A stretch of DNA of 36,071 nt. Source: Fidelibacterota bacterium. GTDB taxonomy: Bacteria; Fidelibacterota; Marinisomatia; Marinisomatales; JABMOV01. The notes under the pieces were generated by a model that made no database searches, was not told where the DNA came from, and worked only from the letters and a program-made list of their open reading frames with translations. Below, piece after piece: positions 6,129-32,968 of this stretch. Location of the stretch: assembly GCA_046861395.1 (NCBI GenBank), contig JBHHUC010000018.1, positions 1 to 36,071 of the forward strand. Reading direction: 5' to 3'. The position numbers and the translations under genes were made by a program. The stretch's first letter is position 1, and every line of letters begins with the position of its first letter.

Positions 6129-7904
6129 CTACAGGGCCGTAGTAAAGACAATGCCGCCGTCAAACCGAAGGGGAACCTGGAAGTGGCTCCATTGCCACCG
6201 GGCCCGAAATGCTACCAAGCTCCCGGACGGAAAGGAATACCGATAGGACAGGGCCACCGATTGTCGTGAATCGGGAATCATGATGGACCGCATTTCCCCG
6301 GGCAGATTCGTATCCCAGAAATAAAGCCGGCTGGCAAAATCATTCACATGGGCCATCAGCAGACTGAATTCCAATTGGTGATAGCCGGGATGATAGTAGA
6401 GCGTGGTCTGTCCGCCAATGGAGTGGTCCTTGAACCGATCGGGTTGTACGATGATAATCTGGTTTTTCAGTTTCAAGACGGGAGATACTGTCCAGTAGTG
6501 GGTGAGAGACCGGGTGATCCGAACCGACACCGGCGGTGAAATTGGGGTATAATAAATTTCATCGTCCCGTTGTTTTTCCTTTTGCTTCACCAGGAAGCGG
6601 ACCCGGTGGCCGGTGACGTGATATTCCCACAGCAGTCCATTTTCATAACCGGTATCCGGCCCTCGTCCGGTAGTGCGAAAAATATCGGAATACAGGCTCA
6701 CAGTGTGGGCTCCGGAGCGAAAGCGAAGACCCTGATAGATGCCTTTTTCGTGGGCCGTTGCCGGGGACCATTCCAGCATGGGATTAGTCCGACTGCCGCC
6801 GGGTTCCGTTTCCGCGTAGCGCCCCATGATGCGATATTGCAGCGGTTTGAATTTCAGGGACAGGACCAGAGCGCCGGAAAAAGGTTGCAACAGGGATACT
6901 TCAGCCGCCAGGGCCACCGGATTTTTCTCCACCCAGCCATAGCCAAAAAGCCGGAATCGCCGAACGAATTGTGTTGCTTTGTAATAGGTTGCATGAGAAA
7001 GTGTCATACCAGCCCCGCCGGATTTCAGGGACGCTTCCATCCCGGCCACAACCATGGCCTCCCCGATCGCTCCGGCATTCCAGCCCGTGGTATTCAATGT
7101 CAATTGCCGATCTTGTGTAATAATTCCTCGAATCGGGCGCCGTGAAAGAGCCAATGTGAATTTTTTCGATGAATGCTGCCGCTGGACCGCCATTCCCCGT
7201 AGGGACCAGGAAGCATAACTGCTGCGGTAGGGAATAATACGGGTATTCGGTCTGAGACGAGTTTGCACGGTGGTAAAGCTTTTCTGTATTGCTGTGGGGC
7301 GCCAGAAATGAAATCCAAGACCGGAAAGAATCTGATAATCGCCCAGCCAAACGGTCGTATGATTAAGACGGTATTCCAGATAAGCCGTGGGTATGGTTGT
7401 GGCCAGGGGCTCATCCGGGCTCAGGGCCAGGGTCCAGCCATAGGCCAGCTTATTGCGGGACCAGCGTCCTTTCCAATGCCACCGTGTGACATTACCGTCT
7501 GTCAGTCGGGTTTGCAGGTACCCGGGGCCGGATCGACGTTTTGTACGAACGGAAACCAATCCGGTGATCTTTTTCAGCGTAATAGGTGCCTGTTCATCCC
7601 GCCGGATGGTGGTCAGACTTTTCCCCGATGGACAGGCCCGTAAATATTCCAGGTCCGGCTGGGATAAAAAGGATAATTCTTCCGCCAGGTGGCGAAAAGT
7701 GGCATCATCCCGACCGGAAAGCAGAGTCAGCGTTTCCAGCCGGTCCAGATCCTCTTCCGAAATCGTGATTTCCGGATCAGTAAGCAGTTGATCGAGGATC
7801 GTACCGCTATTTTGTCCGCAGGCCTTTCCCGGGAAGGTCCAAAACCAGAGACAGACCAGTCCGAGTAGAAAAACGCGTAAGATCATGATAATAGATAATT
7901 TCAT
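6129..7904 (-). CDS. Outer-membrane beta-barrel-like protein, resembling FCB helix-hairpin-helix/ComEA-annotated proteins (start may be 7886)
   Basis: Signal peptide; LGDYQ..SGLG..FW, PYRSS...LRGMA and D(F)ASRLYFW..NLP motifs recalled from that family; alternating beta-strand pattern; only a degenerate HhH-like segment (EELSFLSQPDLEYL). Confidence 0.55.
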   Translation of the reverse strand: MKLSIIMILRVFLLGLVCLWFWTFPGKACGQNSGTILDQLLTDPEITISEEDLDRLETLTLLSGRDDATFRHLAEELSFLSQPDLEYLRACPSGKSLTTIRRDEQAPITLKKITGLVSVRTKRRSGPGYLQTRLTDGNVTRWHWKGRWSRNKLAYGWTLALSPDEPLATTIPTAYLEYRLNHTTVWLGDYQILSGLGFHFWRPTAIQKSFTTVQTRLRPNTRIIPYRSSYASWSLRGMAVQRQHSSKKFTLALSRRPIRGIITQDRQLTLNTTGWNAGAIGEAMVVAGMEASLKSGGAGMTLSHATYYKATQFVRRFRLFGYGWVEKNPVALAAEVSLLQPFSGALVLSLKFKPLQYRIMGRYAETEPGGSRTNPMLEWSPATAHEKGIYQGLRFRSGAHTVSLYSDIFRTTGRGPDTGYENGLLWEYHVTGHRVRFLVKQKEKQRDDEIYYTPISPPVSVRITRSLTHYWTVSPVLKLKNQIIIVQPDRFKDHSIGGQTTLYYHPGYHQLEFSLLMAHVNDFASRLYFWDTNLPGEMRSIMIPDSRQSVALSYRYSFPSGSLVAFRARWQWSHFQVPLRFDGGIVFTTAL

Positions 7905-8613
7905 AGAAGAAAGAACAGTTTAACCAGGAAAATGAAACGCTGCCCAGAATCCGGGTGGGATGACGAGCATAGCCCGATAAACATTGCAACCGGGGCGAGG
8001 GTGAATAGATGAGCCAGATCGCGGATTCCAATGGATCATAGCCCCGGGATAAATCCTGGGTCCAGCGGACATGGCCGGTGAGGAATGCAAGTGGCTGCCA
8101 GCGAGTTTCCAGCCGCGCCACCACCGGCAGCTCTTCCCGGGAGCGGCCGATTCGGGGTTGATTGATATTTCGCAAAGCAAACCGCCAATGCAGGTCAGAC
8201 CGCACCCGGCCAGCCAATTCCAGCGAAAGCCCCCAGGTCCGGGCCTGACCGTAATCGCGAATCCGCAAACTATAGTTCTGCAATGAAAGGGAAACAAGTA
8301 GCGGACGTCGGACCTGGTACCCGTACTGCAACGCCAGAGTTGATTCGGTATAAATCGTATTTCCATACTGGAAATGGGCCAGCCGAAACCGGTGCCGTGT
8401 CCAGGACCCGAAAATTTGTTGTTGGTGATAATATAGTCCTGGCAGCCGAAAGGGTCGTCCTCTTTCCAGTGATAGATTCAATGATAAATCATGGGATGGT
8501 AGGAAGCCCGGCGGTCGGCGGGACATGAAAAATTGTTCATCGGGATGAAGTTCAAAAGCGGCCTGTAGATAGGTCAAAATCCATATCAAAAATATAGCTG
8601 ATTTATGTGACAT
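7807..8613 (-). CDS. Hypothetical outer-membrane beta-barrel protein
   Basis: Signal peptide, amphipathic aromatic-rich strands (YGNTIYTES, RNINQPRIGRSREELP); overlaps the downstream gene by 80-98 nt. Confidence 0.6.
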   Translation of the reverse strand: MSHKSAIFLIWILTYLQAAFELHPDEQFFMSRRPPGFLPSHDLSLNLSLERGRPFRLPGLYYHQQQIFGSWTRHRFRLAHFQYGNTIYTESTLALQYGYQVRRPLLVSLSLQNYSLRIRDYGQARTWGLSLELAGRVRSDLHWRFALRNINQPRIGRSREELPVVARLETRWQPLAFLTGHVRWTQDLSRGYDPLESAIWLIYSPSPRLQCLSGYARHPTRILGSVSFSWLNCSFFYEIIYYHDLTRFSTRTGLSLVLDLPGKGLRTK

Positions 8614-8658
8614 CGCACCCTCGTGTATAACATGAATATAATTAAGGTGAATTTTACA

Positions 8659-8685
8659 GGATATTAGGGAAAAATCCTAATATCC
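8659..8685. promoter_or_regulatory. Perfect 10-bp inverted repeat (operator or terminator)
   Basis: GGATATTAGG-GAAAAAT-CCTAATATCC between the GT2 stop (8695) and the barrel gene start (8613); no clear U-tract on either side. Confidence 0.55.
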
Positions 8686-8694
8686 ACTGGAAAA

Positions 8695-9612
8695 TTATTC
8701 GGGTGGCAATGCTTGTGACCGGTAACGGGCACGGGCACCGTCAATGGCGGCAGCGATTACCAAATAACGCGTTAATAATCCATGCGGGTACAGGGTGCGC
8801 AACGTGCGAACCAGGATACGGATCAGGGGATTAAAGACGATATAACCGCGTATCGAGCGTATCCAGGGGCCGCCCAGTTCACGAGTTTGCTCAGGATGTT
8901 TTTCCAGCAGCAACGGCAAATTATGATAACCATACGTTGTCATGGATCGGCAAAAGTCCTCCATCGTGCGGGGATGGTGGTGAATGACGGTGGCAGCGGG
9001 GAGAAATCGCAGTCCTTGGGGGAATTGTTTGGCGATACGAATGGCCAGATCCGTGTCTTCCCCACCATAAGCTCGGAAAGTATCATCAAAGTAGCCGATC
9101 TGATCCAGTACAGTTTTCCTTATGGCGCAATTCCCAAAGAGAAACCACTGAAAACCCAAGGGTGTTTCAGGCGGAAACTGTCGTGCGCCGCGATCGGGTC
9201 CGAAATAATACCGGTCAAAAGATGACAAGGTTTGTTCCGGGGGTGGCTGATTGTCACCCATGACGGCGACCACATCGGCATCGGCCAGACCCATTACCAG
9301 GGTGGCGATCCAGTGCTTCGGTACTTCCATGTCTCCATCCAGAAAAAGAATAATATTCCCCTTGGCCTGTTCGATTCCACTGTTCCGGGTGGCGGCCAGA
9401 CCGCGGTTGGTGTCATGTGTGATGATCCTGAAATGGGGGACGGAAGCAAAAGACGCCAATATCCGGGCCGTTGCGTCATTTGAGGCGTCGTCAATGAAAA
9501 GACATTCCACTCTTTCCAGGGGGTAGGTTTGGGTGGTCAGGCTCCGGCAGCATTTTTCCAGAGCCCGCTCCACATTATAACAGGGGACGATGACACTGAC
9601 CGTTACAGCCAT
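8695..9612 (-). CDS. Glycosyltransferase family 2
   Basis: VSVIVPCYN, IDDASND, NRGLAATRNSG, FLDGD and GGEDTDL motifs. Confidence 0.93.
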   Translation of the reverse strand: MAVTVSVIVPCYNVERALEKCCRSLTTQTYPLERVECLFIDDASNDATARILASFASVPHFRIITHDTNRGLAATRNSGIEQAKGNIILFLDGDMEVPKHWIATLVMGLADADVVAVMGDNQPPPEQTLSSFDRYYFGPDRGARQFPPETPLGFQWFLFGNCAIRKTVLDQIGYFDDTFRAYGGEDTDLAIRIAKQFPQGLRFLPAATVIHHHPRTMEDFCRSMTTYGYHNLPLLLEKHPEQTRELGGPWIRSIRGYIVFNPLIRILVRTLRTLYPHGLLTRYLVIAAAIDGARARYRSQALPPE

Positions 9613-10688
9613 TCCCGCTCCCGGTACAATTCATACAATCGTTGGCCGGTGTTGTTGTAATCATGGTATTTGACGACCCAGTCCCGCCCCACTTTTTTTC
9701 TGGAACGGATTTCTTCCGGTCGATCTACCAGAGAACGCAGGGTGGATTCAAGGGTCTCTGCTGTTATGGGCACAAAGGGATGATCTGGAATAAAAACCTG
9801 GTATTGTTCCACCAGTTCCGTCAGGCACACAAGTCCCAGGGATAGGGCTTCTACCGAATTCATGCCGTACCCCCAACCACCGCGGTTATGTACCTGGTCG
9901 ATTAACAGATCGCAGGTTTGTTTTTGTGCCAGTACTTCATCCTGGCTTAATCCTTCCAGGAGTACGAATCGGATCAGACCTTCGGCTTCCAGTTTACGGC
10001 AAACCGGTATAATGTCATCGCTGCCCTTATAATAACGGTTGGTGGGACTATGACATACTCGCAGAGGAGTATGTATGTCAAAATTCGGCGTGTGCTGCTG
10101 CGTATCATATGGTAAAAACATGTAGGTGAGATCCGGATGTTTGTCCAGCAGGTCCAGTTCACTGGTGAGGTTCAACTGACTGGCGGCGTCCACGGCAGGG
10201 AAAACACCGCGCGTGCGCAAATCCTGACCATGATAGGTAGCTGCAACAGGTTTCCCCCGGTCCGCTACCCGTCGGACAAACCTTCCGTCACGATAAAGGT
10301 CCATACCCCATTCAAAATGATAGATATCAAAATTGAGGAGATCATATTTTTCAATCGCCGGCTCAATAGTAAAATGCCATAACCAGTCTCGCCACCGGAA
10401 ATACCATTTTTCCAACCGGGAACCGGGTTGCCATACGGGGGGGTGACCGGGTTTTTCGGTATAGTCGCCCAGGGCACCCCGGTGGAGTTGGTAGTACCGA
10501 TGCCGCAGCTTCATGTAGGGTCCGGAAGAATAAACCAGGGGCAGGTTTAGACAAATGCCCGGATTGTTCTGAAACCGGGTCCGGTACAATGTGATAATCT
10601 GACATTCATTCCCCCGTTCCTCATGATAGCGCTGCCATAGATTGAGGGTTCCCACGGTGTTTTCCGGTGATATGTAAAGGATTTTCAT
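9603..10688 (-). CDS. GT-B fold glycosyltransferase (GT4-like)
   Basis: Start moved to MKILYISP (10688, ATGA-coupled to the upstream gene); YHGQDLR, HSPTNRYYKGSD and DQV..GYGMNSVEALSLG motifs. Confidence 0.82.
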   Translation of the reverse strand: MKILYISPENTVGTLNLWQRYHEERGNECQIITLYRTRFQNNPGICLNLPLVYSSGPYMKLRHRYYQLHRGALGDYTEKPGHPPVWQPGSRLEKWYFRWRDWLWHFTIEPAIEKYDLLNFDIYHFEWGMDLYRDGRFVRRVADRGKPVAATYHGQDLRTRGVFPAVDAASQLNLTSELDLLDKHPDLTYMFLPYDTQQHTPNFDIHTPLRVCHSPTNRYYKGSDDIIPVCRKLEAEGLIRFVLLEGLSQDEVLAQKQTCDLLIDQVHNRGGWGYGMNSVEALSLGLVCLTELVEQYQVFIPDHPFVPITAETLESTLRSLVDRPEEIRSRKKVGRDWVVKYHDYNNTGQRLYELYREREWL

Positions 10689-11779
10689 GACAGTGCGGCC
10701 CGGTATATTTCCAGCAGCCGATTCTGAACGGTTTCCCAGTTTCCCCCGGTCCGAATCCATTCCTGATTTTTTCTGACTTGGGTTTGAAGAACGTCCGGTT
10801 GTTGCAATAAATCACGGCAGACGGCAGCCAGTGCCCGGGGGTTGCCCGGTTCGACCAATGGCAGCCAGTCCAGACCCGACAGACGCAGGGGACGTACATC
10901 GGAGGCCACGACGGCGCAACCGGCAGCCATGTATTCGAAAAGTTTGGTGGGTGTATTGGCTTCGGTGAGGGGACTGCTGAGAAAGGGAATGAGGCCGATG
11001 GCAGCCTGGGTGATCCGCGGCCAGATTTCTTCATGGGGGATTTCAGTTTCCAGAACAATTCCGGCTTTGGCCGGGGAATCAGCAACCCGATCACGAAGAT
11101 GGCGCTGATAGGCATCGCTTTCGGCCGGACCGATCAGGGACAGCTCCAGAGTTGAGTCCCCCTCATACAGTATTTCATAAGCCTGAAGCAGAATTTCTGT
11201 CCCGCGCTCCGGTGACATTTGTCCGTGATACACCAGACGATGACGGTGGTTTCCGGTCATGATCCGTGATTTCAGAGGAAAGTTCTCCAACAATGTTAAT
11301 CGTCCGGAATGTGAGGGATAGGGGTTTCCAGCCACCATATTGTTGGCAAAAATGATGTGATCGACATAGCGTAAATAATAACGCTCATACCACGACAAAC
11401 CCCGGTTTATGATGGTTTTTACAGGTCGAGACCGGCGGGAATGGGTGCCCCACATTTCCCGCATATATTCATGGACATCGTACAGGGTAAAAGTGGAACC
11501 ACGCCGTTTGAACCAGCGGGCCAGAGGCAAAAGTTCAAATTCATGAAAATGAAACACAGCCACGAAAGCGGGAAGATTTTCCTTTACGGCCGTCAGAAAG
11601 GAAGCCCGGTCAAGATCAGGAAAATTAATGTGGGTGACCAGGTCGTCGGAAAGATCGACTCGGACCGCACTGCGGGTCAGGTAGGTAATGGGACGCCCCA
11701 GCGTTTTCAGGGTTCTGATTTCCCGGTGATATATCCGTTCATCATCCGGCCGGTGACCCAGGCTGGCAACAACAATCAT
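10685..11779 (-). CDS. Glycosyltransferase family 4
   Basis: H.PDDERIYHRE, YDVHE, YHGQMSPERG and PTKLFEYMAAG..VVASD motifs. Confidence 0.9.
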   Translation of the reverse strand: MIVVASLGHRPDDERIYHREIRTLKTLGRPITYLTRSAVRVDLSDDLVTHINFPDLDRASFLTAVKENLPAFVAVFHFHEFELLPLARWFKRRGSTFTLYDVHEYMREMWGTHSRRSRPVKTIINRGLSWYERYYLRYVDHIIFANNMVAGNPYPSHSGRLTLLENFPLKSRIMTGNHRHRLVYHGQMSPERGTEILLQAYEILYEGDSTLELSLIGPAESDAYQRHLRDRVADSPAKAGIVLETEIPHEEIWPRITQAAIGLIPFLSSPLTEANTPTKLFEYMAAGCAVVASDVRPLRLSGLDWLPLVEPGNPRALAAVCRDLLQQPDVLQTQVRKNQEWIRTGGNWETVQNRLLEIYRAALS

Positions 11780-16271: not shown

Positions 16272-16290
<19 letters not shown>

Positions 16291-16847
16291 TAGACTTCCT
16301 CACCCCGTAATACGGATTTACAGATAAACTCCACATTTTCCGGCGGACGGTCAAAATCATAATAGAGTTCAGCCACAACGGATTGTTTCGGTGGTACGAT
16401 GGCTAGGTCCTGGTATTTCCCCTTGAATGGATTCAGGTCTCCCCGGTTGTTCCCCGAAGCGGTTATCCGGGTCATCATCATGGCCGAATAATCAAAAGGT
16501 TTCCCGCGTAAATTTGTAATCCGGAGTTTAAGATGCACCTGGTTTCCGTCACGATTAGCGGACAGAACATTGTATTTTACCTTATCGGCGATCTGATCGG
16601 TGCCCGGAGGCAGCGCCACCCGTGGATCCTCAAAGGCTGCGACCGGAATATACACGTCCACCGTGGTTTTGATAAATTGTTTGCTACGGTCCAATTTCAG
16701 TTTGGTCACAGGGAGTCCGGCCTCCAGAGACCCGACGGGTTTTTCATCTGAAGGAGAAAGAAAAACAGGTGTTTCTTCTTTGAGAGTGGTCTCCTGGGCT
16801 AAAAGTGCGCCTAGAAGGATACTAAGAAAAAAGAGGCGGATGATCAT
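16272..16847 (-). CDS. Secreted hypothetical protein (SH3b-like N-domain plus DUF4352-like Ig fold), coupled to motB
   Basis: Signal peptide (..GALLA/QE); ETPVFLSPS..VGSLEAG.PV..L (SH3-like) and LKLRITN...VPPKQSVVAELYYD (Ig-like); ATGA overlap with the motB stop. Confidence 0.65.
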
Positions 16848-18458: not shown

Positions 18459-19730
18459 ATGACAACACAATTCAGATCTCTCGATGATCGTCTGGACTAT
18501 TTATACGGATTACAGCGTCTGGGTATCAAAAAAGGTCTTGGCCATACCCGTGCCCTGCTCCGGCATTGCAATAATCCCCAAAATCATTTCCCGGCGATCC
18601 ATATTGCCGGCACAAACGGAAAAGGGTCCACGTCAGCGCTGCTGGCATCGATTCTGAGCAAGGCCGGTTACCGAACAGGATTATATACTTCGCCGCATTT
18701 AGTCCGGTTCAATGAACGGGTCCGGGTCAATGGGGTACCCATCACTGACGATGCCATCATCCAATTTGTCGATAACTATCGCCCGGCCATCGAAGAGATT
18801 CAATCCACTTTTTTTGAAACCACAACAGCCCTGGCCTTTTCCTGGTTTGCTGAACAGAATGTGGATGTTGCCGTGATTGAAACAGGTCTGGGGGGACGGC
18901 TGGATTCCACCAATGTAGTACAACCGGAATTATCTGTCATTACGCCGGTGGCGATGGATCATCAGCATATCCTGGGATTGACACTGAGGCAGATTGCTCG
19001 GGAAAAGGCTGGCATAATAAAGCGTAAAACACCGGTGATCACCGTTCGACAGAATAAGGACGTAGCCATGGTGATCCGGGAGACGGCCCACCGGAAGGAA
19101 GCATCCGTGATCCGGGTCCCGGTCCCAGAAGAAATTGAAGTCGTGGAAACAGCGACCCGATTTTTCTTGGCCGGTGAACGGTATTCCGTGGCACTTCCGG
19201 GGTATCATCAGGCAGAGAATGCCTCAATAGCACTGACCGTAGCCCGGACCTATCAGCCCCAAATTACCCAACCGGTCATACAAAAAGGACTGGATACCAT
19301 CCGGTGGCCAGGGCGTATGCAATGTTTGTCACGGAAACCGCTGCTCTATTATGATGTTGCCCACAATGCGCACGGCATCCATTCCATGCTACAGACGCTG
19401 GCGTCCATACGTCCCTCGAAGCCGGTAGGTTTGTTGGCCCTGAAAGGAGATAAGGATATAGTTGATATTGCCGGGGTTGTGCGAGGGAGGTTTTCCCGCC
19501 TGATAGTATCATCCCTGCCCGACGCCGATCTAATTCCGGCGGAGACCCTGGCCCGGGAATTGACGCAGCAAAAGGTTGATGTGGATGGTGTTCTCCCCTT
19601 TTCAGCCGCCATAACAGCCTTGGCAACTGCCGCTGGTCGGGACCGGCCGGGAGTGATATTTGGCAGTCATTATATTGGAAAAGCAGTATTTAGCGCGTTT
19701 GAATTTCCCTTTGACACGGGAAGGATTTAA
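18459..19730 (+). CDS. folC: Folylpolyglutamate synthase/dihydrofolate synthase
   Basis: HIAGTNGKGST, YTSPHL, ETGLGGRLDSTN, EKAGIIK, WPGR and DVAHN motifs. Confidence 0.97.
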   Translation: MTTQFRSLDDRLDYLYGLQRLGIKKGLGHTRALLRHCNNPQNHFPAIHIAGTNGKGSTSALLASILSKAGYRTGLYTSPHLVRFNERVRVNGVPITDDAIIQFVDNYRPAIEEIQSTFFETTTALAFSWFAEQNVDVAVIETGLGGRLDSTNVVQPELSVITPVAMDHQHILGLTLRQIAREKAGIIKRKTPVITVRQNKDVAMVIRETAHRKEASVIRVPVPEEIEVVETATRFFLAGERYSVALPGYHQAENASIALTVARTYQPQITQPVIQKGLDTIRWPGRMQCLSRKPLLYYDVAHNAHGIHSMLQTLASIRPSKPVGLLALKGDKDIVDIAGVVRGRFSRLIVSSLPDADLIPAETLARELTQQKVDVDGVLPFSAAITALATAAGRDRPGVIFGSHYIGKAVFSAFEFPFDTGRI

Positions 19731-19738
19731 CGTAATTT
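19711..19738 (+). promoter_or_regulatory. Putative sigma70 promoter of the rho operon
   Basis: Perfect TTGACA (19711-19716)-N16-TAATTT (19733-19738), straddling the folC stop. Confidence 0.6.
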
Positions 19739-19828
19739 ACTTCTTCGGATTTTTATTCTCTTCGAAGGATATTTCGTTTAGCGCGCAATCCCCCACAAAA
19801 ACGTAAGTCTAAACCACAAGGTTTGTAA

Positions 19829-21076
19829 ATGGATATTAATGAATTACAAGCCCTGAAAATCAAGGAATTGACCAAGCTGGCACGAGACTTGGACATCCAA
19901 GGATACTCAGGACTCAATAAGCAGGAATTAATTGTCAAGATTCTTCAGGCAAGCGTGGAGAAACAGGGAGACCTGTTTGCCCGCGGTACGCTGGAAGTAT
20001 TATCCGACGGTTACGGTTTCCTGCGCAGCCCAGATTTTAATTATTTACCGGGACCCGATGATATATATGTCAGCCCTTCCCAGATTAAACGTTTTGGTTT
20101 GCGCACCGGTCATCTCATTGCGGGACAGATTCGTCCGCCCAAAGCCAAGGAGCGGTTTTATGCTCTGCTGAAAGTCGATTTAATCAATGACCGACCGCCG
20201 TCGGAAATATCCAACGCCATTCTGTTTGAAAATCTTACCCCTACATTTCCGGAAGAAAAATTCAATCTGGAAGGGGACCCGAAAAATTTATCCATGCGGA
20301 TCATGGACATGATTTCTCCCGTGGGAAAAGGACAGCGGGGATTAATTGTCGCCCAGCCCAAAACCGGAAAAACCGTGCTGTTGCAAAAAATTGCCAATGC
20401 TATTCGTACCAACCATCCTGACACGAGAATGCTTATTCTGTTGATTGATGAACGGCCGGAAGAAGTGACTGACATGAAACGGAATGTGGATGCGGAAGTG
20501 GTGAGCTCCACTTTTGATGAACCGCCGGAGCGACATGTATCGGTGGCTGAAATGGCTTTGCAAAAAGCCAAAAGGATGGTGGAATTCGGTGAGGATGTTG
20601 TCATTCTGTTGGACAGTATCACCCGCCTGGCGCGGGCCCATAATGCCGTCATCCCCCATAGTGGAAAAATTCTTTCCGGTGGAGTTGATGCCAATGCCTT
20701 AAAAAAGCCGAAACAATTTTTTGGTGCCGCTCGTAATACGGAAGAAGGTGGGAGTCTTACTATTATTGCTACGGCTCTGATTGATACCGGCAGTCGAATG
20801 GATGATGTCATTTTTGAAGAATTCAAAGGAACTGGTAATCTGGAATTAGTTCTGGATCGTCGTCTGAGCGACAGACGTATTTACCCATCTTTCGATATTA
20901 TCAGGTCAGGAACCAGACGTGAAGAATTATTGTTACCCAAGAAAACACTGGGCCGGATGTGGATCCTGCGTAAACTGCTCAATGAAATGAATGTAATTGA
21001 AGCCATGGAATTTTTACAGGACCGTATACGGCGCACCAAATCCAATGATGAATTCTTGGATAATATGAACGGGTGA
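19829..21076 (+). CDS. rho: Transcription termination factor Rho (compact, no N-terminal insertion)
   Basis: [59 protein letters not shown] and SGTRREELL motifs. Confidence 0.99.
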
Positions 21077-21117
21077 CAAATCATTAGCAGATACTAACAT
21101 ATTCATGAGGTATAGTA

Positions 21118-22059
21118 ATGGAATCAAAGCGTGTTAAAGTACCATCCGTTGCGGTAAAAATCGTAACCGATAAACCCGTTAAGAAAACCCCTTATCAGGT
21201 AAAAGGGGTCATCATGCGACAATTTCCCGATGAAGAAATTGTACCAATGCTGGATGGGCGGTACCGGGAAAAATTCCTTTATCCGCGGGTCCAGGTCAAA
21301 ATCCTGAATGAGCAGATTTATCTTCTTGGATTGAATGAAGGTGTGGCGCCCATAATGTCCCTGATTGATAAGTTTGACTTTCTTGATTTTGGCAACATTA
21401 CTTTTCAGGTTTTAGGTGCCGATGTAGATAAAAACGACAATCGGTTTCAACCGACCAATCGTCTGATCCGCTATCGTTTTATTACACCGTGGGTGGCGTT
21501 AAATCAGATTACAGGAAGTCGGTATCGTTTCTTGAACAATGCCGAAAGGGCCGTATTTCTTAATCGGCTGTTGGGACAAAACATTGTCTTTCTGGCCCGG
21601 GAAATGGGAATGGAAATTCAGAAAAAGGTATATACCAAGACATCCCTCACGTCCCTGTTCCCGAAACCGGTAGATGAACATAACTGGGGTGCTTTCACCG
21701 GTGAATTTCGTACGAACTTCGTATTACCCAACTATATTGGTGTTGGTAACGGTATTACCCGGGGCTATGGCACGATCTACGGCCTGTTCAATCCGGACAT
21801 GTTCCATTTCGATGAAGGCAACCTGTCCGAGGAAGCCGTCGATGACAGTGGGATTGAGGAAATATCGGAAAATGACACCGAACTGGAAGAAGTCAGTGTT
21901 GATGATGTTCCGACTCCTCGCAAGCGCCGTCCAGCCTCAAAAAAGAAGGGCCGTAAGGTTCTTAGCGAAGAATTCGACATTGAGGAAGAGGAAGACACCA
22001 GTGACGAAGACGCAAAGTTCAATCGCCCGGAATATCATTCCAAGCAACACGACTTTTAG
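21118..22059 (+). CDS. Stand-alone Cas6b-like RAMP protein with a ~85-aa charged C-terminal tail
   Basis: Cas6b-type motifs YPRVQVK, YRFITPWVALNQ, L.R.L..NI...A and F.GEF.TNF.LP.YIG, plus the G-rich loop GVGNGITRGYG (aa 208-218, nt 21739-21771); GAGG RBS; no cas genes or array in the window. Confidence 0.85.
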   Translation: MESKRVKVPSVAVKIVTDKPVKKTPYQVKGVIMRQFPDEEIVPMLDGRYREKFLYPRVQVKILNEQIYLLGLNEGVAPIMSLIDKFDFLDFGNITFQVLGADVDKNDNRFQPTNRLIRYRFITPWVALNQITGSRYRFLNNAERAVFLNRLLGQNIVFLAREMGMEIQKKVYTKTSLTSLFPKPVDEHNWGAFTGEFRTNFVLPNYIGVGNGITRGYGTIYGLFNPDMFHFDEGNLSEEAVDDSGIEEISENDTELEEVSVDDVPTPRKRRPASKKKGRKVLSEEFDIEEEEDTSDEDAKFNRPEYHSKQHDF

Positions 22060-22074
22060 GAACGGTCCCAGAGC

Positions 22075-23259
22075 ATGTTTGCCGATCGAGTTGCGAAAAT
22101 TCGCCCATCGTTCACCCTTCAGATGGCCAGCAAAGCTGCCGAATTACTGGAGGCCGGCCGGGATGTTATCAATTTCAGCGTAGGTGAACCCGATTTCAAT
22201 ACGCCGGAGAATATCCGTCGTACCGCCCATGATGCCATAGAGAACGGTTATACGAAATACACGGCCGGACAGGGCATGATGGAATTGCGCCAGGCGATTT
22301 GCAGTAAATTTGCCCGGGAAAACAATCTGACTTACACACCGGATCAGGTGTTGGTTTCCAATGGCGAAAAACAGAGTTTATCGCTGGCCTGTCAAGCCCT
22401 GTTTCAGGACGGTGATGAAGTCATTATTTTTACGCCGTACTGGGTGTCGTTTCCGGAATTTGTACGGCTGGCAGATGCGACTCCGGTGTTGGTGCGGACG
22501 AATGCCGACCGACAATTTGAACCAGACTGGGACGATCTGGAACGGAACATATCACCGCGGACAAAAGGGGTGATCATCAATTCTCCTTCCAATCCCACAG
22601 GCGGCGTATGGTCGAATGAAGCCGTTCATCGTCTGCTCACCATTGCTGCCGACCAGAACTGGACCGTTATTGCAGATGAATGCTATGAACGACTGGTATA
22701 TGATGGCGTCTTTACCAGCGCGGAAGCGTTGAACGATGTGGGCGCAACCATCATTACATGCATGAGTTTATCCAAATCCTATGCCATGACCGGCTGGCGG
22801 ATCGGATATGCCGCCGGTGCAACCAGTATTATCAAAGCGATGAGTAAAATTCAGGGACAGGCCACATCTTGTGCCAATGCCATCGGCCAAAAAGCGGCGG
22901 TAGAAGCATTAACGGGCGATCAATCGGCAGTGGAAACCATGCGCCAGACGTTTCAGTCGCGGCGGGATATCATGATATCCCTCTTGCGGGCTATTCCGGA
23001 TGTGAAATGTGTGGTTCCTCACGGGGCTTTTTATGCCTTTCCCGATCTGTCCGCCTATATGAATAAAAAAAATGGTACCCGAATCATCAAAGATTCTTTT
23101 GCCTTATCCGATTATCTGTTGGAAATGGCCACGGTCGTTACGGTACCTGGGGACGGTTTTGGTGCCCCGGGACACATCCGCTTTTCTTTTGCCACCGGAG
23201 CGGAACAAATCCGTAGAGGAATAGAGCGGGTACAGAATGCATTACGTAAATTAGAGTAG
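22075..23259 (+). CDS. PLP-dependent class I aminotransferase (aspartate aminotransferase-like)
   Basis: SVGEPDF, NSPSNPTG, DECYE, SLSKSYAMTGWRIGY and GAFYAF motifs. Confidence 0.95.
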   Translation: MFADRVAKIRPSFTLQMASKAAELLEAGRDVINFSVGEPDFNTPENIRRTAHDAIENGYTKYTAGQGMMELRQAICSKFARENNLTYTPDQVLVSNGEKQSLSLACQALFQDGDEVIIFTPYWVSFPEFVRLADATPVLVRTNADRQFEPDWDDLERNISPRTKGVIINSPSNPTGGVWSNEAVHRLLTIAADQNWTVIADECYERLVYDGVFTSAEALNDVGATIITCMSLSKSYAMTGWRIGYAAGATSIIKAMSKIQGQATSCANAIGQKAAVEALTGDQSAVETMRQTFQSRRDIMISLLRAIPDVKCVVPHGAFYAFPDLSAYMNKKNGTRIIKDSFALSDYLLEMATVVTVPGDGFGAPGHIRFSFATGAEQIRRGIERVQNALRKLE

Positions 23260-23274
23260 TTACAGGAGTAAAGG

Positions 23275-23481
23275 ATGAAACCGAATATCCATCCCGAATA
23301 CAAAAAAGGTACGGTTACCTGTGTTTGTGGTAATTCGTTTGAGGTTTACAGTACCGTTGGCGAACAGCGGGTTGAAATCTGCAATAAATGTCATCCCTTT
23401 TTTACCGGGAAACAGAAACTGGTTGATACCGCCGGACGTATTGAGAAGTTCAAGAAAAAATACAACCAGGCAAAAAAGTAG
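23275..23481 (+). CDS. rpmE: 50S ribosomal protein L31 (Zn-binding type)
   Basis: [26 protein letters not shown] and DTAGRIEKF motifs. Confidence 0.98.
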
Positions 23482-23541: not shown

Positions 23542-24510
23542 ATGATAAAGCGAATTTTACGAATTCTGGTTGCCAAGCCTACCATTCTGGTTGGGGGACA
23601 GGCTGTGATCGAAGGTGTCATGATGCGGGTGCCGGGGGCCTATGCTACAGCCGTACGTACTCCGGAAGGAACCATCTCAGTCGATCGTCACCCGTTTACG
23701 TCCCGGGCGGAAACGTCACGAATATGGAAATGGCCCGTATTCCGGGGTATCATCGGGCTGTTCGAAGCGATGAAAATCGGATTCAGCACCCTGCAGTGGT
23801 CGGCCGATATTGCCTTGCCGGAAGAAGAACAATCCGATAAGGACAACCGTTGGAGCAATGCCTTATCCACATTGTTTGCCGTGGTGCTGGCAGTGTCCCT
23901 GTTCATGATAATTCCCTACGTTCTAACCACCTATGTCTTTCATCTGGAAAAATCCGCTTTATCCTTCAATCTGATGGCCGGGCTGCTGCGCATTACCTTC
24001 TTTGTGGTGTATTTATTGATTATTTCACTACTAAAGGATGTCAAACGGCTCTTCATGAATCATGGAGCCGAACATAAGGTGGTATACAATTTTGAATCCG
24101 GCCGTGAAATTACGGTGGAAAATGCTCAGTCTTTTCAAACCCAACATCCCCGTTGTGGAACAAGCTTTATGTTTATTGTCCTGATGGTGGCGATTCTGGT
24201 GTTTGCCATCGTAGATACCATCGCCATGGCCATGGTGGGACAATTGTCGGTTCCGGTACGACTGCTCATGCATTTGCCTTTGATTCCACTGGTGGCCGGT
24301 CTGGCTTATGAAGGAATTAAGCTTTCTTCCCGGCGTGGCGACAAATTGCTGTTCCGTATTTTACGGGCTCCCGGTCTCTGGCTCCAGAACATTACCACTA
24401 GCGAACCGGAAGACGGAATGGTTGAAGTGGCCATCGTGGCTTTAAAATCGGCTTTCGGCGACCGCTTTAAGGAATTTGAAGGACGGAAATATCAGGCCGA
24501 GGCCGTCTGA
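23542..24510 (+). CDS. DUF1385 (YqhQ-like) membrane protein
   Basis: [27 protein letters not shown] and PGLWLQ.ITT.EP motifs; start moved to 23542 because 23497 lies inside the terminator. Confidence 0.92.
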
Positions 24511-25589
24511 TGGAAGAGAAAATCAAGCAGATTATTGACCGTTACCAGTTGTTGGGTGAACAAATGTCCAACCCGGAGATTTATTCCGATCAGAAAAAAA
24601 TGAAAGAGCTGGCACAGGAACACAGCCACCTGAAAGAAATTGTCACCTGCGGAAAACAATATCTCGATGTTTCGGCTCACCTGAGGGAAGATCGGGAAGT
24701 CCTGGCGGGACAGGATAATGAGCTGAAGGAGTTGGTACAGGGAGAAATCCCGGAGCTGGAAGAAGAAAAGCGGGAACTGGAAGCCCAGTTGAAATTATTG
24801 ATGTTGCCCAAGGATCCCAATGATGACAAGAATATCATAGTAGAAATCCGAGCGGGCACCGGTGGGGACGAAGCTGCCTTGTTTGGGGCGGACCTGTTTC
24901 GCATGTACACCCGCTATGCCGAACGCCGGGGATGGAAGACGGAAATTCTCGACTCCAACAGTACGGGAATGGGCGGTTTGAAGGAAGTCATATTCTCCAT
25001 GGAAGGTAAAGGGGTGTATGGTCAGATGAAATTCGAAAGCGGCGTTCACCGAGTTCAGCGGGTTCCCAAAACGGAAACCAGCGGACGAGTGCACACGTCG
25101 GCGGCTACCGTGGCCGTTTTACCAGAAGCCGAAGAAGCGGATGTTGAGGTGGTGGAATCCGATCTGAAAATTGATACATATCGTGCCAGCGGAGCCGGGG
25201 GACAGCATGTGAATAAAACAGAATCGGCCATTCGGATCACCCATGTTCCCACTGGTCTGGTCGTAACATGCCAGGATGAAAAATCACAGCATAAAAACCG
25301 TGCTTCAGCCATGAAAGTACTCCGATCCCGATTACTGGCCCTGGAGCAGGAGAGGATTGCCAAGGAACGGGCCGAAGAGCGTAAAATGCAAGTCAGCACC
25401 GGTGACCGTTCTGCCAAGATCCGGACATATAATTTTCCTCAGGGCCGAGTCACGGACCACCGTATAAACCTCACGTTGTATAATCTGGAAGCAACAATGG
25501 ACGGCGATATCGGGAATTTGATTGAACAGTTAAGGCTGGCAGATCAGCAGGCCCGTCTGGCGGCTATCGGGGAAAGTTTTTCGAGCTGA
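24510..25589 (+). CDS. prfA: Peptide chain release factor 1
   Basis: [17 protein letters not shown] (PxT, RF1-specific), GAGGQHVN and [10 protein letters not shown] motifs. Confidence 0.98.
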
Positions 25590-27403: not shown

Positions 27404-27480
27404 ATGTCTGACAACCGGAAACTGAGAATGCAATCCAAAAGTAGAAATTATTATTACCAAGGATCTGATTGGGAGATATA

Positions 27481-28920
27481 ATGAGAATTCTTCTTCTTGC
27501 CCTTTTCCTTCTGACCGGAGGGATTTCACAGGAAACAGATAGCGGTTTAACATTGGAGCGTTATCCCATTCTGATATTACCGGCAATCGGTGATTCAACC
27601 AATGCTCCCATTGCTGAGGATCTGACCCGGTTACTCAGCACCGAAGCGACAGCGCTACAACGGTTTAATGTCATTGACCATACCCAGCTGGAATCGGTTC
27701 TAGCAGAACAGGCCCTCCAGATGAGCGGTATTGTTCGCGATGAGGATGTGGTGGAATTTGGCCGTCTGGCGGCCGCACGTGAAGCTCTGGTGCTGCGGGT
27801 TCTGAATTTCGGTCAGAAGGGTGTCCCACCGGAGGATGAAGAGGAGGAGGATGAGAAAGATCGCGCCAAAGCCCGGGAATACGGTTTGTTCGGAATTGTG
27901 GTGAAAGGTATTGTGGACGCGATTGTGGATAAAGAACTGGAAGACGTGGAACGTTATCCAGACAATATCCAGACGATTATTCAGGCTGAGGTCAGTAAAC
28001 TGGATATTGAATCGGGCAAATCCGTGGCTTCCTTCAAAGTGGTGGTCCTGCATACCGGTGGTAACCGTGATAAATCATTGAGTGCGGCCCTGAGCCAGGC
28101 TGCCCGTGAGATGTCGTCCGAATTACGTAAGCTTTATCTCCTGAACAGTGAAGTCCTGGAAGTGAACGGCGATGAAGTTACCTTGCTCTTGGGGAAAAAT
28201 CTGGGTATCCGGCCGGGAATTCAATTTGATATTGTATCGCGACCACAAGAACGCCAGCTCCGGGGACGTTCAATTACATTGCCGGGACGATCCGTGGGGC
28301 GGGTGCTAGTGGAAACGGTGAGTCCCGATGCCAGTCAGGGGCGGATATTGCGGTACTGGGAACCGCTGCAACCCGGATACAGGGCGGTGGAAACACTGAA
28401 ACCGGTTGTTGGTCTTGGTATGACATTGACCCTGGCACCGGACATCAGGTTCTACCGACTTCAGGTGTTGCCCAATCCCTTACCTTTCCAGAAATTCATT
28501 ATTCAGGGACTGTTCTCCTTGGGTATGATGAAAGACACCAGAAACGATATGGATTTTTCGCTGGGTTTCGGGCTTCAACTGGGTCATAATGTGTATTATC
28601 ATTCCCAACGGGCCCTGGGAATAACGGTTTCCCTTCCTTTGCATGTAGCCTTTCGCAGCGACGATGAATCCAATATGGTTGCGATGCCTGTATTTGCACC
28701 CGGAATCGGCGCTGTGCTGAAATTTCAAATGGATCGCAGGCGTGATTTGATACTAGCCATTGATGTCGTCTCCATGTCCACAACCGGGAGGTGGAAATAT
28801 TCCAAGGACAATGAAGACGGAAATACGGACACCTTCGATGCGATCTGGCATGATACGACCCCGGACATTCGTCCGGAGGGATTGTATTTTTCTGTCGGTT
28901 ACCGTTTCCTGACGTTGTAA
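27481..28920 (+). CDS. Secreted/outer-membrane protein: CsgG/TolB-N-like domain, FlgT-C-like domain and a C-terminal beta-strand region
   Basis: Signal peptide after a GGAG RBS; FNVID..QLESVLAEQALQMSG and VNGDEVTLLLGKNLGIRPG..F motifs; ends in YFSVGYRFLTL. Confidence 0.6.
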   Translation: MRILLLALFLLTGGISQETDSGLTLERYPILILPAIGDSTNAPIAEDLTRLLSTEATALQRFNVIDHTQLESVLAEQALQMSGIVRDEDVVEFGRLAAAREALVLRVLNFGQKGVPPEDEEEEDEKDRAKAREYGLFGIVVKGIVDAIVDKELEDVERYPDNIQTIIQAEVSKLDIESGKSVASFKVVVLHTGGNRDKSLSAALSQAAREMSSELRKLYLLNSEVLEVNGDEVTLLLGKNLGIRPGIQFDIVSRPQERQLRGRSITLPGRSVGRVLVETVSPDASQGRILRYWEPLQPGYRAVETLKPVVGLGMTLTLAPDIRFYRLQVLPNPLPFQKFIIQGLFSLGMMKDTRNDMDFSLGFGLQLGHNVYYHSQRALGITVSLPLHVAFRSDDESNMVAMPVFAPGIGAVLKFQMDRRRDLILAIDVVSMSTTGRWKYSKDNEDGNTDTFDAIWHDTTPDIRPEGLYFSVGYRFLTL

Positions 28921-30080: not shown

Positions 30081-31304
30081 CTAACGGAACAAGTCTTTTA
30101 CAGCGGTCACCTTACCGTCGGCCTGCGGATTGGGAATCAGTCCAAGGATTTTTGCGATTATGGGATATACCATGATATTTTGAATTTCAGCCCGCTGATA
30201 AGCATTTTTAAAGGCCGGTCCGTCGGCGATGAAGATGGCTTGCATACTCCGTAATTGATTGTCATATCCGTGCGTGGCGCCCCGGGTCAGGGAAGCAAGA
30301 TATTCAGGGTCATGGGCCCGCTTCAGGTTGGGGATGCTCCAACCTTCATCGGCAACGAGTAATACATCCTTGATACGATAATGATTCCGGTAATGGTACC
30401 GCTTCGGGATATCTGCTTTGCGGTATGCATTTAGGTGGGGAATGCGGTTCAACTGTCTAACTAGTCGGCGGGCGCGCCATCCCTTGACTGGATAGAGAAA
30501 GGAAAAAGGCCCGGATCGTTCCTGGGTAATTCCAGTCAGATCAATCTTTTCAGGGAATTGGATGATTTTTTCCGGAGAAAGATCCACCATGCCATGATCG
30601 CTAACAACGATAATATTTAATCGGTCATAAATGGGAAGAGCCACCATGGTGCGCATGATGTATCCTAGTAAAGAATCCAAGGCCGCCACTTTTTGTTCCG
30701 TTTCGGCGGATCGGACACCGAAATGGTGACTGGTTTCATCCGGTTCGTGAAAATACAGGGTTACCAAATGGGGGCGACGGTTTTCTGGCAGGGAAAACCA
30801 GGCGGCTACCGAATCAACCCGGTCGAAAAAGGGCATGTGATGGTCATACCGTTTCCAGATGGAAGGTTGAAGACCTGCGACAGGGGCCTCAGAACCGACC
30901 CAGAACATGGATGCGGATTTTACGCCCTGTTGTTCGGCCGTAACCCAGATGGGTTCTCCACCGTAGAATCGCGCATCTTCCACTTTGGTGCGGTCACTTA
31001 ACCGGTAGGTTTCATCCAATTTTTCATCATAGAAGTAATTGTCGATCAGGCCATGATTTTCGATATACATTCCGGTTGCCAGTGTATAATGGTTGGGAAA
31101 TGTCTTGGTAACATAAACCGGTTGCATATGTTCGGCCCGGACACCGGCCTCAGCCAGCGCGTGAAAATGGGGTGTAGGGTACCAGTCCAAATAGTCAGCT
31201 CGAAAACCATCAAAGGAAATGAGCAAAACATAGGGAACATCACGGTCCTGGCCCAGGGCCAGGCTCCAAAGCGATAGAAAAACAAGGCAGATACGTTGTA
31301 TCAT
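30081..31304 (-). CDS. Secreted ectonucleotide pyrophosphatase/phosphodiesterase (type I phosphodiesterase)
   Basis: LISFDGFR, TKTFPNHYTLATG, LYFHEPD..SH, VSDHGM and HGYDN motifs; signal peptide. Confidence 0.94.
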   Translation of the reverse strand: MIQRICLVFLSLWSLALGQDRDVPYVLLISFDGFRADYLDWYPTPHFHALAEAGVRAEHMQPVYVTKTFPNHYTLATGMYIENHGLIDNYFYDEKLDETYRLSDRTKVEDARFYGGEPIWVTAEQQGVKSASMFWVGSEAPVAGLQPSIWKRYDHHMPFFDRVDSVAAWFSLPENRRPHLVTLYFHEPDETSHHFGVRSAETEQKVAALDSLLGYIMRTMVALPIYDRLNIIVVSDHGMVDLSPEKIIQFPEKIDLTGITQERSGPFSFLYPVKGWRARRLVRQLNRIPHLNAYRKADIPKRYHYRNHYRIKDVLLVADEGWSIPNLKRAHDPEYLASLTRGATHGYDNQLRSMQAIFIADGPAFKNAYQRAEIQNIMVYPIIAKILGLIPNPQADGKVTAVKDLFR

Positions 31305-32290
31305 CTGAAGTCCTCCCGAGAAGTTGTGTCGGGCCAGGGTACGAACAGGAGAATTGTTCGTGGATGCTTATCCGTGATGATGATGAAGCCTTGGTCACCG
31401 TAACGGGCAATACCTTCCCAGTTATGCGACTGCGAATCACTTGGTGGAATATTCAGCGGTGGTGTAGGTGTGACAAAAATATGGTTGTCACGATATTCCA
31501 TTTCCAGGAGGCGTTCCACGGCTGTGCCCGGTTTCACGGCCTTACCGCCCGGTAGAAAAGGATCCGGGGCTGGTTTCAATAGTCGGTAATCACCGGGCCA
31601 GAGATAGTTGATGACCCAGAATTTTCCCGTCTCATCCATGTCTGTGGCATCGGTGATGCGATATTCTATGGTGGGAAAGGGTATTTTATCAACGACCTGT
31701 AAATCCGGTCCTAATACCGGTTGCCAGGGATCTTCGTTGACTCGAGCACCATTTGCTTCGTAAAGGGGAATGTATTGACCATCCACGCTGATCAGGGATT
31801 CGTAAGCCATATTGCGTTTTTTCCGCGGAGTCATAATTTCGACGGTGCGGGAAGGGTCAAGTGAAATGCCTTTTTCAAGCGATGGGAATTGTCCCTGAAT
31901 GGCCAGTGCTGACATTTCATGGCCATGGTTAATTTCCACCATGAGAGTTACCAGTGTATCCTCGATCAGTATGGCTTCGAACCCTTCAAATCCGGAAATG
32001 AGCTGTTTGAATTCATCTCCCAGGAACGGCACCCTGATTGGTTGGACGGGGGGATGAGCCGGGTTTTCCAGACAGGAAGCAATGTCAGGCCGCGATAGTG
32101 CCACGATGTAGCCGGTGGGATACTGGGGCAATAGGATCAGATAATCCCGGTACCAGGCCAATGCGGAGTATTCCAGTTCAGGCTGATTGAACGGAGATGG
32201 TAGAGGGATCTCCACCGGCGGGTCGGCGCCTCGCAGACCGGACAGGAAAGCCAACAACAAAAATTGAATTAATCGCACATTTTTTTGCAT
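31301..32290 (-). CDS. Secreted hypothetical protein, probably a beta-propeller
   Basis: Start moved to MQKNVRLIQ (32290), giving a signal peptide and no overlap with pcm; repeated blade-like motifs EYSAL, GFEAI, AYESL and NWEGI. Confidence 0.6.
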   Translation of the reverse strand: MQKNVRLIQFLLLAFLSGLRGADPPVEIPLPSPFNQPELEYSALAWYRDYLILLPQYPTGYIVALSRPDIASCLENPAHPPVQPIRVPFLGDEFKQLISGFEGFEAILIEDTLVTLMVEINHGHEMSALAIQGQFPSLEKGISLDPSRTVEIMTPRKKRNMAYESLISVDGQYIPLYEANGARVNEDPWQPVLGPDLQVVDKIPFPTIEYRITDATDMDETGKFWVINYLWPGDYRLLKPAPDPFLPGGKAVKPGTAVERLLEMEYRDNHIFVTPTPPLNIPPSDSQSHNWEGIARYGDQGFIIITDKHPRTILLFVPWPDTTSREDFR

Positions 32291-32326
32291 TGAACCAGTA
32301 AATTCCTTCAAATTCAAGGGTCTAAG

Positions 32327-32968
32327 TTGAACAGGGACGAGGAACAATTCAAAGTGTTACGTTATCAGATGGTGGCAACACAATTACGGTCCCGCGGTAT
32401 ACGGGACGAACGTGTTCTGGCGGCCATGGAAACGGTTCCACGCCACCGGTTTATTCCCTCCGGAGATCGTTACCGGGCCTATGAAGACGGTCCCCTGCCC
32501 ATCGGATACGGTCAGACAATCAGTCAACCATATATCGTCGCTTTCATGACGGAATGTCTGTCGGTAGCGAAAAATACTTCCATTCTGGAAATCGGTACCG
32601 GCTGCGGCTATCAGACAGCCATTCTGGCCACGCTGGGTGCACGGTTGGTCAGTGTAGAACGGATAGCGGAACTGGCCGACAAAGCCCGGCAGCGTCTTGA
32701 ACAATTGGGGTTTCACGGTATCAGAATCATTCATGGCGACGGGTTTGACGGATATCCCGATGATGCCCCCTATGACCGGATCATGGTGACGGCTGCACCA
32801 CGGACCGTACCCGAGCCGCTGGTGGAACAATTGGCACCGGGCGGAATCATGGTATTGCCGGTGGGACGTTCACTGTTACGTCAGCATCTTGAAATAGTGG
32901 AAAAGGATAATGACGGCAAGGTGCGGACGATTCAGTCTATTGGTGTCCGATTTGTATCCATGGTTTAA
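32327..32968 (+). CDS. pcm: Protein-L-isoaspartate O-methyltransferase
   Basis: VPRHRF, PIGYGQTISQPY, LEIGTGCGYQ, APYDRI.VTAA and QLAPGG motifs. Confidence 0.96.
   Translation: MNRDEEQFKVLRYQMVATQLRSRGIRDERVLAAMETVPRHRFIPSGDRYRAYEDGPLPIGYGQTISQPYIVAFMTECLSVAKNTSILEIGTGCGYQTAILATLGARLVSVERIAELADKARQRLEQLGFHGIRIIHGDGFDGYPDDAPYDRIMVTAAPRTVPEPLVEQLAPGGIMVLPVGRSLLRQHLEIVEKDNDGKVRTIQSIGVRFVSMV

Follow-up and report, generated by a model that had tools for sequence, protein, structure and literature searches.

The 36,071-nucleotide contig JBHHUC010000018.1 of a Fidelibacterota genome (assembly GCA_046861395.1), referred to below as the window, carries directly behind rho, the gene for the transcription termination factor, a gene encoding a 313-residue protein related to Cas6b of clustered regularly interspaced short palindromic repeat (CRISPR) systems. 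Relatives of this gene stand behind rho in much of the phylum, most genomes that carry a Cas6b-like gene give no match to Cas1, and the rho-linked proteins have, as judged from alignments, lost the histidines of the Cas6b active site. A CRISPR component has, it seems, been turned to the cell's everyday handling of RNA. The reading we favour from these sequence comparisons, with a probability of about 0.55, is that the product is a non-cutting RNA-binding protein which would act in the Rho pathway and be made from the same transcript as Rho. The initial annotation of the window, drawn from its letters alone, had already proposed a domesticated Cas6 working outside CRISPR; the lack of CRISPR context, the linkage to rho and an inheritance that follows taxonomy all agree with that proposal.

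Residues 8-221 are a genuine Cas6b by both sequence and fold. Both Pfam domains of the family are matched above their cut-offs (Table 1), the PADLOC profiles Cas6 and Cas6b give 141.6 and 136.5 bits, and a phmmer search of all PDB chains finds the Cas6b of Methanococcus maripaludis (4z7k/4z7l) with E 6.6e-26 over residues 27-221, the next match having E 0.43. NCBIfam assigns no family to the protein. An AlphaFold2 model built from a 31-row alignment has a mean predicted local distance difference test score (pLDDT) of 82.4, with blocks of 85 or more over residues 11-220 and values mostly above 90 in the core. Foldseek places 4z7k/4z7l chains in the first five ranks for this model (E 2.5e-18 to 1.2e-13, target-normalised template modelling score 0.80-0.86), headed by 4z7k_A (E 2.5e-18, 0.80), and other Cas6 families below them. 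The RAMP/Cas6b fold that had been supposed from four motifs is therefore present, and the motifs themselves lie in the reading frame in the expected places: YPRVQVK at residues 55-61, YRFITPWVALNQ at 119-130, FTGEFRTNFVLPNYIG at 193-208 and the glycine-rich loop GVGNGITRGYG at 208-218.

The likeness to the M. maripaludis protein, a type I-B CRISPR RNA (crRNA) endoribonuclease, extends over the whole core and includes the fold, the glycine-rich loop and the motifs Y-P-x-x-Q and T-P-W-x-A-L-N, which are invariant or nearly so across the family. G210, G216 and G218 of the loop do not vary in 31 sequences that include canonical Cas6b proteins, nor in 25 rho-linked ones. Near-invariant polar residues (Y55, Q59, E143, R144, N155 and N200) are found as well, and the core is basic (31 K+R vs 21 D+E). 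The window gene differs from its M. maripaludis counterpart in its context, being fixed behind rho without a cas operon or array, in a charged tail of 88 residues added in the order to which the window belongs, and in its active site.

The alignment to 4z7k pairs H38 of the M. maripaludis enzyme with P43 and Y47 with F53, just past the former active-site loop, and leaves H40 opposite a gap, so that neither the histidine pair nor the tyrosine has a counterpart; Y49 is retained as Y55. The only histidine in the core (residues 1-225) is H188. According to the accessible part of the mutational study of the M. maripaludis enzyme, H38 and H40 complement each other catalytically, the H38A/H40A double mutant suffers a drastic loss of activity, Y47A reduces activity, and single histidine mutants retain considerable activity (Richter 2012, PMC3479195). 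Histidine is missing from the H38/H40 columns in all 60 rho-linked proteins: 53/53 in the family alignment and, judged by eye, 7/7 others that had been left out of it for uncertain ends. Canonical Cas6b representatives have H-[NQH]-H there, and histidine occupies the catalytic columns in 68 of the 92 full-length representatives in the tree described below, together with the two second copies that are not linked to rho. These alignments indicate that the catalytic histidines are lost in the window protein and its rho-linked relatives.

In 29/29 closely related loci and in 30/32 distant ones, where identity of the Cas6b-like protein falls to 23-25%, the gene next upstream on the same strand is rho; this makes 59 of the 61 loci fetched. 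The spacers between the two genes mostly measure 9-74 nt, and Rho is 67-89% identical among the loci of the phylum. The initial annotation had suggested that the order rho-cas6-aminotransferase-rpmE might be conserved among relatives. Its first half stood; the aminotransferase adjoins the Cas6b-like gene in only 24/29 close and 22/30 distant rho-linked loci, and rho is the only constant neighbour.

Both exceptions (L061 and L062) are second copies with histidines, in genomes that also hold a rho-linked copy. They share the Pfam domains of the window protein (122 and 87 bits in L062) and differ from it in keeping histidine in the catalytic loop, in not adjoining rho and in sitting inside the histidine-bearing group of the tree. 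One genome can therefore hold both forms of Cas6b, which argues that they do different jobs. At L062:5944-11417 (genome G242) about 2 kb separate the canonical, histidine-bearing Cas6b gene from a downstream gene for Cas12a/Cpf1 with the domains REC1, REC2, RuvC and PI. The interval holds one gene with an ORF6N domain and two open reading frames (ORFs) without Pfam match, and the housekeeping genes guaA and glmS precede the group. Since Cas12a processes its own crRNA, a Cas6b gene beside it is odd.

The distribution of the gene was surveyed in 301 genomes drawn evenly from the phylum; "order" refers throughout to that of the window. A Cas6b-like match was found in 162 of them, whether the query was a single protein or a profile made from 25 rho-linked sequences, and comparison of the genome lists shows that 130 of these 162 carriers have no Cas1 match. 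Fifteen families of the order (f1, f2 and f4-f16) have the gene in 114/114 genomes, mostly as a single copy, and Cas1 in 14/114. The initial annotation had allowed for homologues that occur only sporadically and always with a type I-B or III locus, and the order presents the opposite picture. Three other families without any Cas1 match also carry the gene: f21 (9/10; Cas1 0/10), f29 (4/4; Cas1 0/4) and f22 (4/6; Cas1 0/6). Families f26 (8/33; Cas1 12/33) and f28 (9/30; Cas1 13/30) have fewer matches. No Cas6b-like gene stands behind rho in the two rho loci inspected in f28, and for this reason its matches are probably canonical copies. Relatives bear the taxon labels Marinimicrobia, Neomarinimicrobiota, Fidelibacterota or FCB group, and when L063, the most divergent rho-linked protein, was used in a word-indexed search, Marinimicrobia was the sole organism name among its 21 matches. 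In one 90% cluster with Marinimicrobia labels, a single member carries the label Lentisphaeria.

The genome from which the window comes (2.37 Mb, 136 contigs, 94% complete) gives a single Cas6b_C match, which is the window gene. A k-mer script found no array-like repeat in it, and profile searches found no match to Cas1, RAMP, DevR/Cas7, Cas5 or Cas3_HD. Four relatives, three of them single-contig genomes, likewise lack RAMP, DevR/Cas7, Cas5 and Cas3_HD and are not among the Cas1-positive genomes. The population data weigh more for a role outside CRISPR than do absences from the one genome. Rfam has no match in the window.

Vertical inheritance, as claimed by the initial annotation, is supported by a maximum-likelihood tree of 126 rows, in which the protein groups follow taxonomy. 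The tree was made by a quick method with the catalytic-loop columns excluded, it is unrooted, and its canonical rows were limited to those closest to the query. A branch with a Shimodaira-Hasegawa-like approximate likelihood ratio of 95 separates the seventy histidine-bearing rows, with one archaeal row lacking histidine among them, from all rho-linked proteins, which group by taxonomic family. The core is under strong constraint: nonsynonymous divergence (dN) from genomes of the same family is 0.057-0.065 in the core and 0.24-0.28 in the tail. Synonymous sites are saturated in 11 of 12 core and tail comparisons over six pairs, which precludes a dN/dS ratio. Within the family, Rho is 87-89% identical, the Cas6b-like protein 80-84% and the aminotransferase 72-76%.

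The immediate surroundings of the gene are as the initial annotation had them. The stop codon of rho (TGA, 21074-21076) is separated from the ATG at 21118 by 41 nt that hold a GAGG ending 7 nt 5' of the start codon, and gaps of 15 nt follow both the Cas6b-like gene and the aminotransferase gene. Base composition is close to that of rho (0.455 vs 0.458 G+C; window 0.498), and none of the window's 33 further large ORFs is a cas, transposase or integrase gene: all belong to housekeeping Pfam families or to none. The terminator scan found no + strand terminator-like site between rho and the Cas6b-like gene, as had also been claimed; its site count in the region equals the shuffle expectation, so the scan carries little weight either way. 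Given the short gap, the separate ribosome-binding site and the lack of a terminator, rho and the Cas6b-like gene are most likely carried on one transcript.

The course of events suggested by these data is that a Cas6b was domesticated, keeping its two-domain fold and the glycine-rich loop by which Cas6 proteins hold RNA and losing the histidine pair and the tyrosine that the M. maripaludis enzyme requires for cutting, and that the protein would no longer form part of a CRISPR-Cas system. It would most likely be a non-cutting RNA binder in a process involving Rho and might, for instance, single out certain transcripts for Rho or protect them from it. Co-transcription, RNA binding without cleavage and a functional or physical link to Rho are what we infer here.

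A tail rich in acidic and basic residues appears to have been gained in the order and probably mediates protein contact. It is found only in proteins of the order, class-level relatives having 225-263 residues, and it is acidic overall and modelled with low confidence. Several short motifs are conserved in it, chief among them a C-terminal one (Table 1), which is present in 28/28 complete order-level proteins (L003-L031, leaving out L029, which is cut by a contig end) and in the window protein itself (L002); it is modelled as a helix (residues 295-312) with low confidence. Short conserved motifs in a flexible tail usually point to a protein contact, which is probable here. In a bolder version, which we regard as unlikely, the protein would be a Cas6-derived specificity subunit of the Rho machinery in many SAR406/Fidelibacterota lineages: a module derived from a CRISPR nuclease that recognises RNA by sequence or structure and so directs Rho to end some transcripts and leave others alone, with the tail and its C-terminal motif docking on Rho or RNA polymerase.

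Prediction of a complex between Rho and the Cas6b-like protein, with alignments of 25 rows each, lends weak support to a contact, with a score of 0.40 (runs of 0.44, 0.07 and 0.40), the best of three controls scoring 0.00. At least 34% of contacts are common to the runs, and the pLDDT of the partner does not fall below 71. The mark used is reached by 116 of 157 solved complexes and by 2 of 215 mismatched pairs, and passes with a score of 0.60 or lower account for only 18 of the 157 and for both passing mismatches; the alignments were self-built, so these calibration counts are only approximate.

Several observations weigh against a non-cutting RNA-binding partner of Rho. Unless the prior is high, most complex predictions that pass with a score such as 0.40 are wrong; the adjacency of two genes is in itself weak evidence that their products bind; and a search among longer proteins found no fusion of Rho with Cas6b, which is itself weak evidence. 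The gene is widespread yet not universal in the phylum, with no match in f17 (0/15; Cas1 0/15) and f30 (0/9; Cas1 4/9) and few in f24 (3/26; Cas1 6/26). It is dispensable in f3, a family with streamlined genomes of about 1 Mb, where neither the gene nor Cas1 is found (0/30 for each) and the order is folC-rho-aminotransferase-rpmE; in the three f3 loci L066, L067 and L068, rho is followed directly by the aminotransferase gene with nothing between them (3/3). Metagenome-assembled genomes often miss CRISPR arrays, so the lack of an array in the window's own genome is no proof of a life outside CRISPR. Nor are missing histidines proof of missing cleavage. A basic residue (R50 in the window protein) is retained in most rho-linked proteins, a few class-level members (L032, L035, L040-L042 and L045) have histidine at loop positions 48-50, and a crenarchaeal Cas6 with an atypical active site has been described, as far as the accessible part of that report goes (PMC3652601).

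A remaining nuclease activity is the first matter to be weighed. The protein could still be an endoribonuclease that uses other residues, such as R48/R50, Y55 or another conserved polar position, and has a particular cellular RNA, not crRNA, as its substrate. The intact fold and glycine-rich loop, the near-invariant polar residues and the reported activity of Cas6 enzymes that do not depend on histidine would all suit this; the crenarchaeal protein resembles that of the window in lacking the usual catalytic histidine and differs from it in being described, in the same partial source, as a processor of CRISPR RNA, whereas the window protein has no CRISPR context. The considerable activity left in single histidine mutants of the M. 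maripaludis enzyme points the same way, but the double mutant and Y47A speak against it, since all three positions are replaced in the window protein, and the histidine columns are empty throughout the rho-linked set. A search of the window's own genome for dispersed repeats gave no candidate for a processing site, and none of those detected resembles a CRISPR repeat family. We consider such an enzyme unlikely. It is quite unlikely, too, that the gene merely hitch-hikes in an operon behind rho and serves in ribosome or translation-factor biology, or as a general RNA chaperone, with no tie to Rho. The cluster does continue with genes for L31, DUF1385, RF-1 and PrmC, the complex prediction is weak and f3 has lost the gene while retaining rho. 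Against this stands the constancy of rho in 59/59 rho-linked loci, compared with the lower frequencies of the aminotransferase, and a pairing that persists down to the lowest protein identities found.

Largely refuted, and most improbable, is the idea that the protein still works as a Cas6b and processes crRNA in trans for a CRISPR-Cas locus located elsewhere or missing from the draft. NCBI product names for relatives are either "hypothetical protein" or "CRISPR-associated endonuclease Cas6", the second of which would fit such a role, as would a draft in many contigs from which arrays, which assemble poorly, may be missing. What decides against it is that the window's own genome and the three single-contig relatives lack matches to Cas1, Cas3_HD, Cas5, Cas7 and RAMP, that most carriers have no Cas1, that the catalytic histidine pair is lost, and that two genomes hold a separate canonical Cas6b, with Cas12a beside the one inspected. 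The favoured interpretation remains that of a non-cutting RNA binder in the Rho pathway.

Recruitment of Cas proteins to non-defence roles is rare and mostly anecdotal. Here a Cas6b is kept under strong constraint behind rho, without CRISPR, over much of SAR406, a bacterial phylum that ranks with the most abundant ones in the dark ocean. If the protein is indeed an RNA-binding partner of Rho, it would represent a new kind of factor in bacterial transcription termination and a natural counterpart to the use that engineers make of catalytically dead Cas6 proteins. The role proposed, that of a small protein that shifts the action of Rho, resembles that of the Rho modulators Psu, YaeO/Rof and Hfq, whose folds are unrelated to that of the Cas6b-like protein; none of the three is known to be encoded in fixed partnership with rho. 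Searches of the open-access literature in PMC and bioRxiv turned up no account of a Cas6b that is linked to rho or works outside CRISPR. A protein of Fidelibacter multiformis that is named Cas6 shares a 90% cluster with a rho-linked protein found in this analysis. F. multiformis is a cultured member of the phylum, so that the question is accessible to experiment; the accessible text of its description mentions neither CRISPR nor Cas6 (PMC11652737).

Table 1. Positions of the Cas6b-like gene, its parts, neighbouring genes and other features in the window
Feature	Position (nt)	Strand	Details
Cas6b-like gene	21118..22059	+	313 residues plus stop; Pfam, PADLOC, PDB and fold matches
Cas6b N-terminal domain, residues 10-103	21145..21426	+	Pfam PF17955 (Cas6b_N), 41.1 bits, cut-off 25
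Former active-site loop, residues 41-50	21238..21267	+	IVPMLDGRYR; located by alignment to 4z7k
Cas6b C-terminal domain, residues 113-220	21454..21777	+	Pfam PF17262 (Cas6b_C), 87.9 bits, cut-off 39.4; genome search hits the same place
Glycine-rich loop, residues 208-218	21739..21771	+	GVGNGITRGYG; G210, G216 and G218 invariant
Tail, residues 226-313	21793..22056	+	29 D+E vs 12 K+R; pLDDT block means 40-76
C-terminal motif	22015..22056	+	KFNRPEYHSKQHDF; order consensus FN-x-[PE]-E-[FY]-H-x-K-[QR]-H
Promoter-like element and leader of rho	19711..19828	+	TTGACA at 19711-19716, 16 nt, TAATTT at 19733-19738, then a short leader able to form a hairpin
rho, transcription termination factor	19829..21076	+	415 residues; Pfam Rho_N, Rho_RNA_bind, ATP-synt_ab
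Spacer between rho and Cas6b-like gene	21077..21117	+	41 nt; GAGG at 21107-21110; no + strand terminator-like site
Class I/II aminotransferase gene	22075..23259	+	Pfam Aminotran_1_2, 256.7 bits; 15 nt 3' of Cas6b-like gene
rpmE (ribosomal protein L31)	23275..23481	+	Pfam Ribosomal_L31, 108.1 bits
ORFs without Pfam match	138-1031, 6132-7904, 7810-8613, 9606-10760, 16275-16847, 31304-32347	-	Pfam E 1e-5
ORF without Pfam match	27469-28917	+	Pfam E 1e-5

Past rpmE the cluster continues, by Pfam, with DUF1385, prfA (RF-1) and prmC. Upstream of rho, the pattern TTTGAC(A/C)-N16/17-(G/T)TAATTT recurs about 95-115 nt before the gene in most order-level loci, where it overlaps the end of folC, and positions 19711-19738 of the window are a candidate rho promoter on this evidence. 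The consensus promoter scan missed the element, its -10 hexamer being too weak for the rule. Within the spacer behind rho, most order-level loci (L003-L031) have (A/T)GGTGTAGCA 20-30 nt upstream of the ATG, and the window holds a diverged TTAGCAGATA there. The spacer motif AGGTGTAGCA is not enriched genome-wide, with 2-5 matches per genome in five genomes vs 3-9 for the reversed control, which suggests a local element; it may belong to an internal promoter or serve as an autoregulatory operator. In L007 a unit of about 50 nt that includes the spacer motif is duplicated in tandem.

At L046 a TAG stop divides rho from the Cas6b-like gene. The one long match in the search for fusions, a 693-residue protein on a 5-kb contig (P0323), joins residues 1-164 of a Cas6b-like protein of the rho-linked type to the rear of a RecD2-type helicase; as a single sequence it is most likely a chimera of assembly or gene calling. 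In f3, Rho is longer (428-446 residues by ORF), with extra residues near the N-terminus (L066, L067 and L068).

Among the dispersed repeats of the window's own genome, the coding repeat corresponds to C-terminal domains of the Q-N-Y-P-N-P-F-N-P type. A multi-copy element of about 200 nt or longer, with 10 core copies, often stands at contig ends (C6, C18, C46, C77, C78, C109 twice, C110, C115 and C126) and probably represents the terminal part of an intron or mobile element at which the assembly breaks. On contig C54, around 24000-25100, and also on C4, C90, C119 and C133, repeat units with perfect small palindromes of the AACCCCAGCGGGGTT and GATTCCGTAGGAATC types are clustered 100-290 nt apart; the cluster on C54 could be a structure like repetitive extragenic palindromes or a cassette array. 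Within the window, seven large ORFs have no Pfam match, and those at 6132-10760 lie inside or beside a cluster of genes for polysaccharide synthesis.

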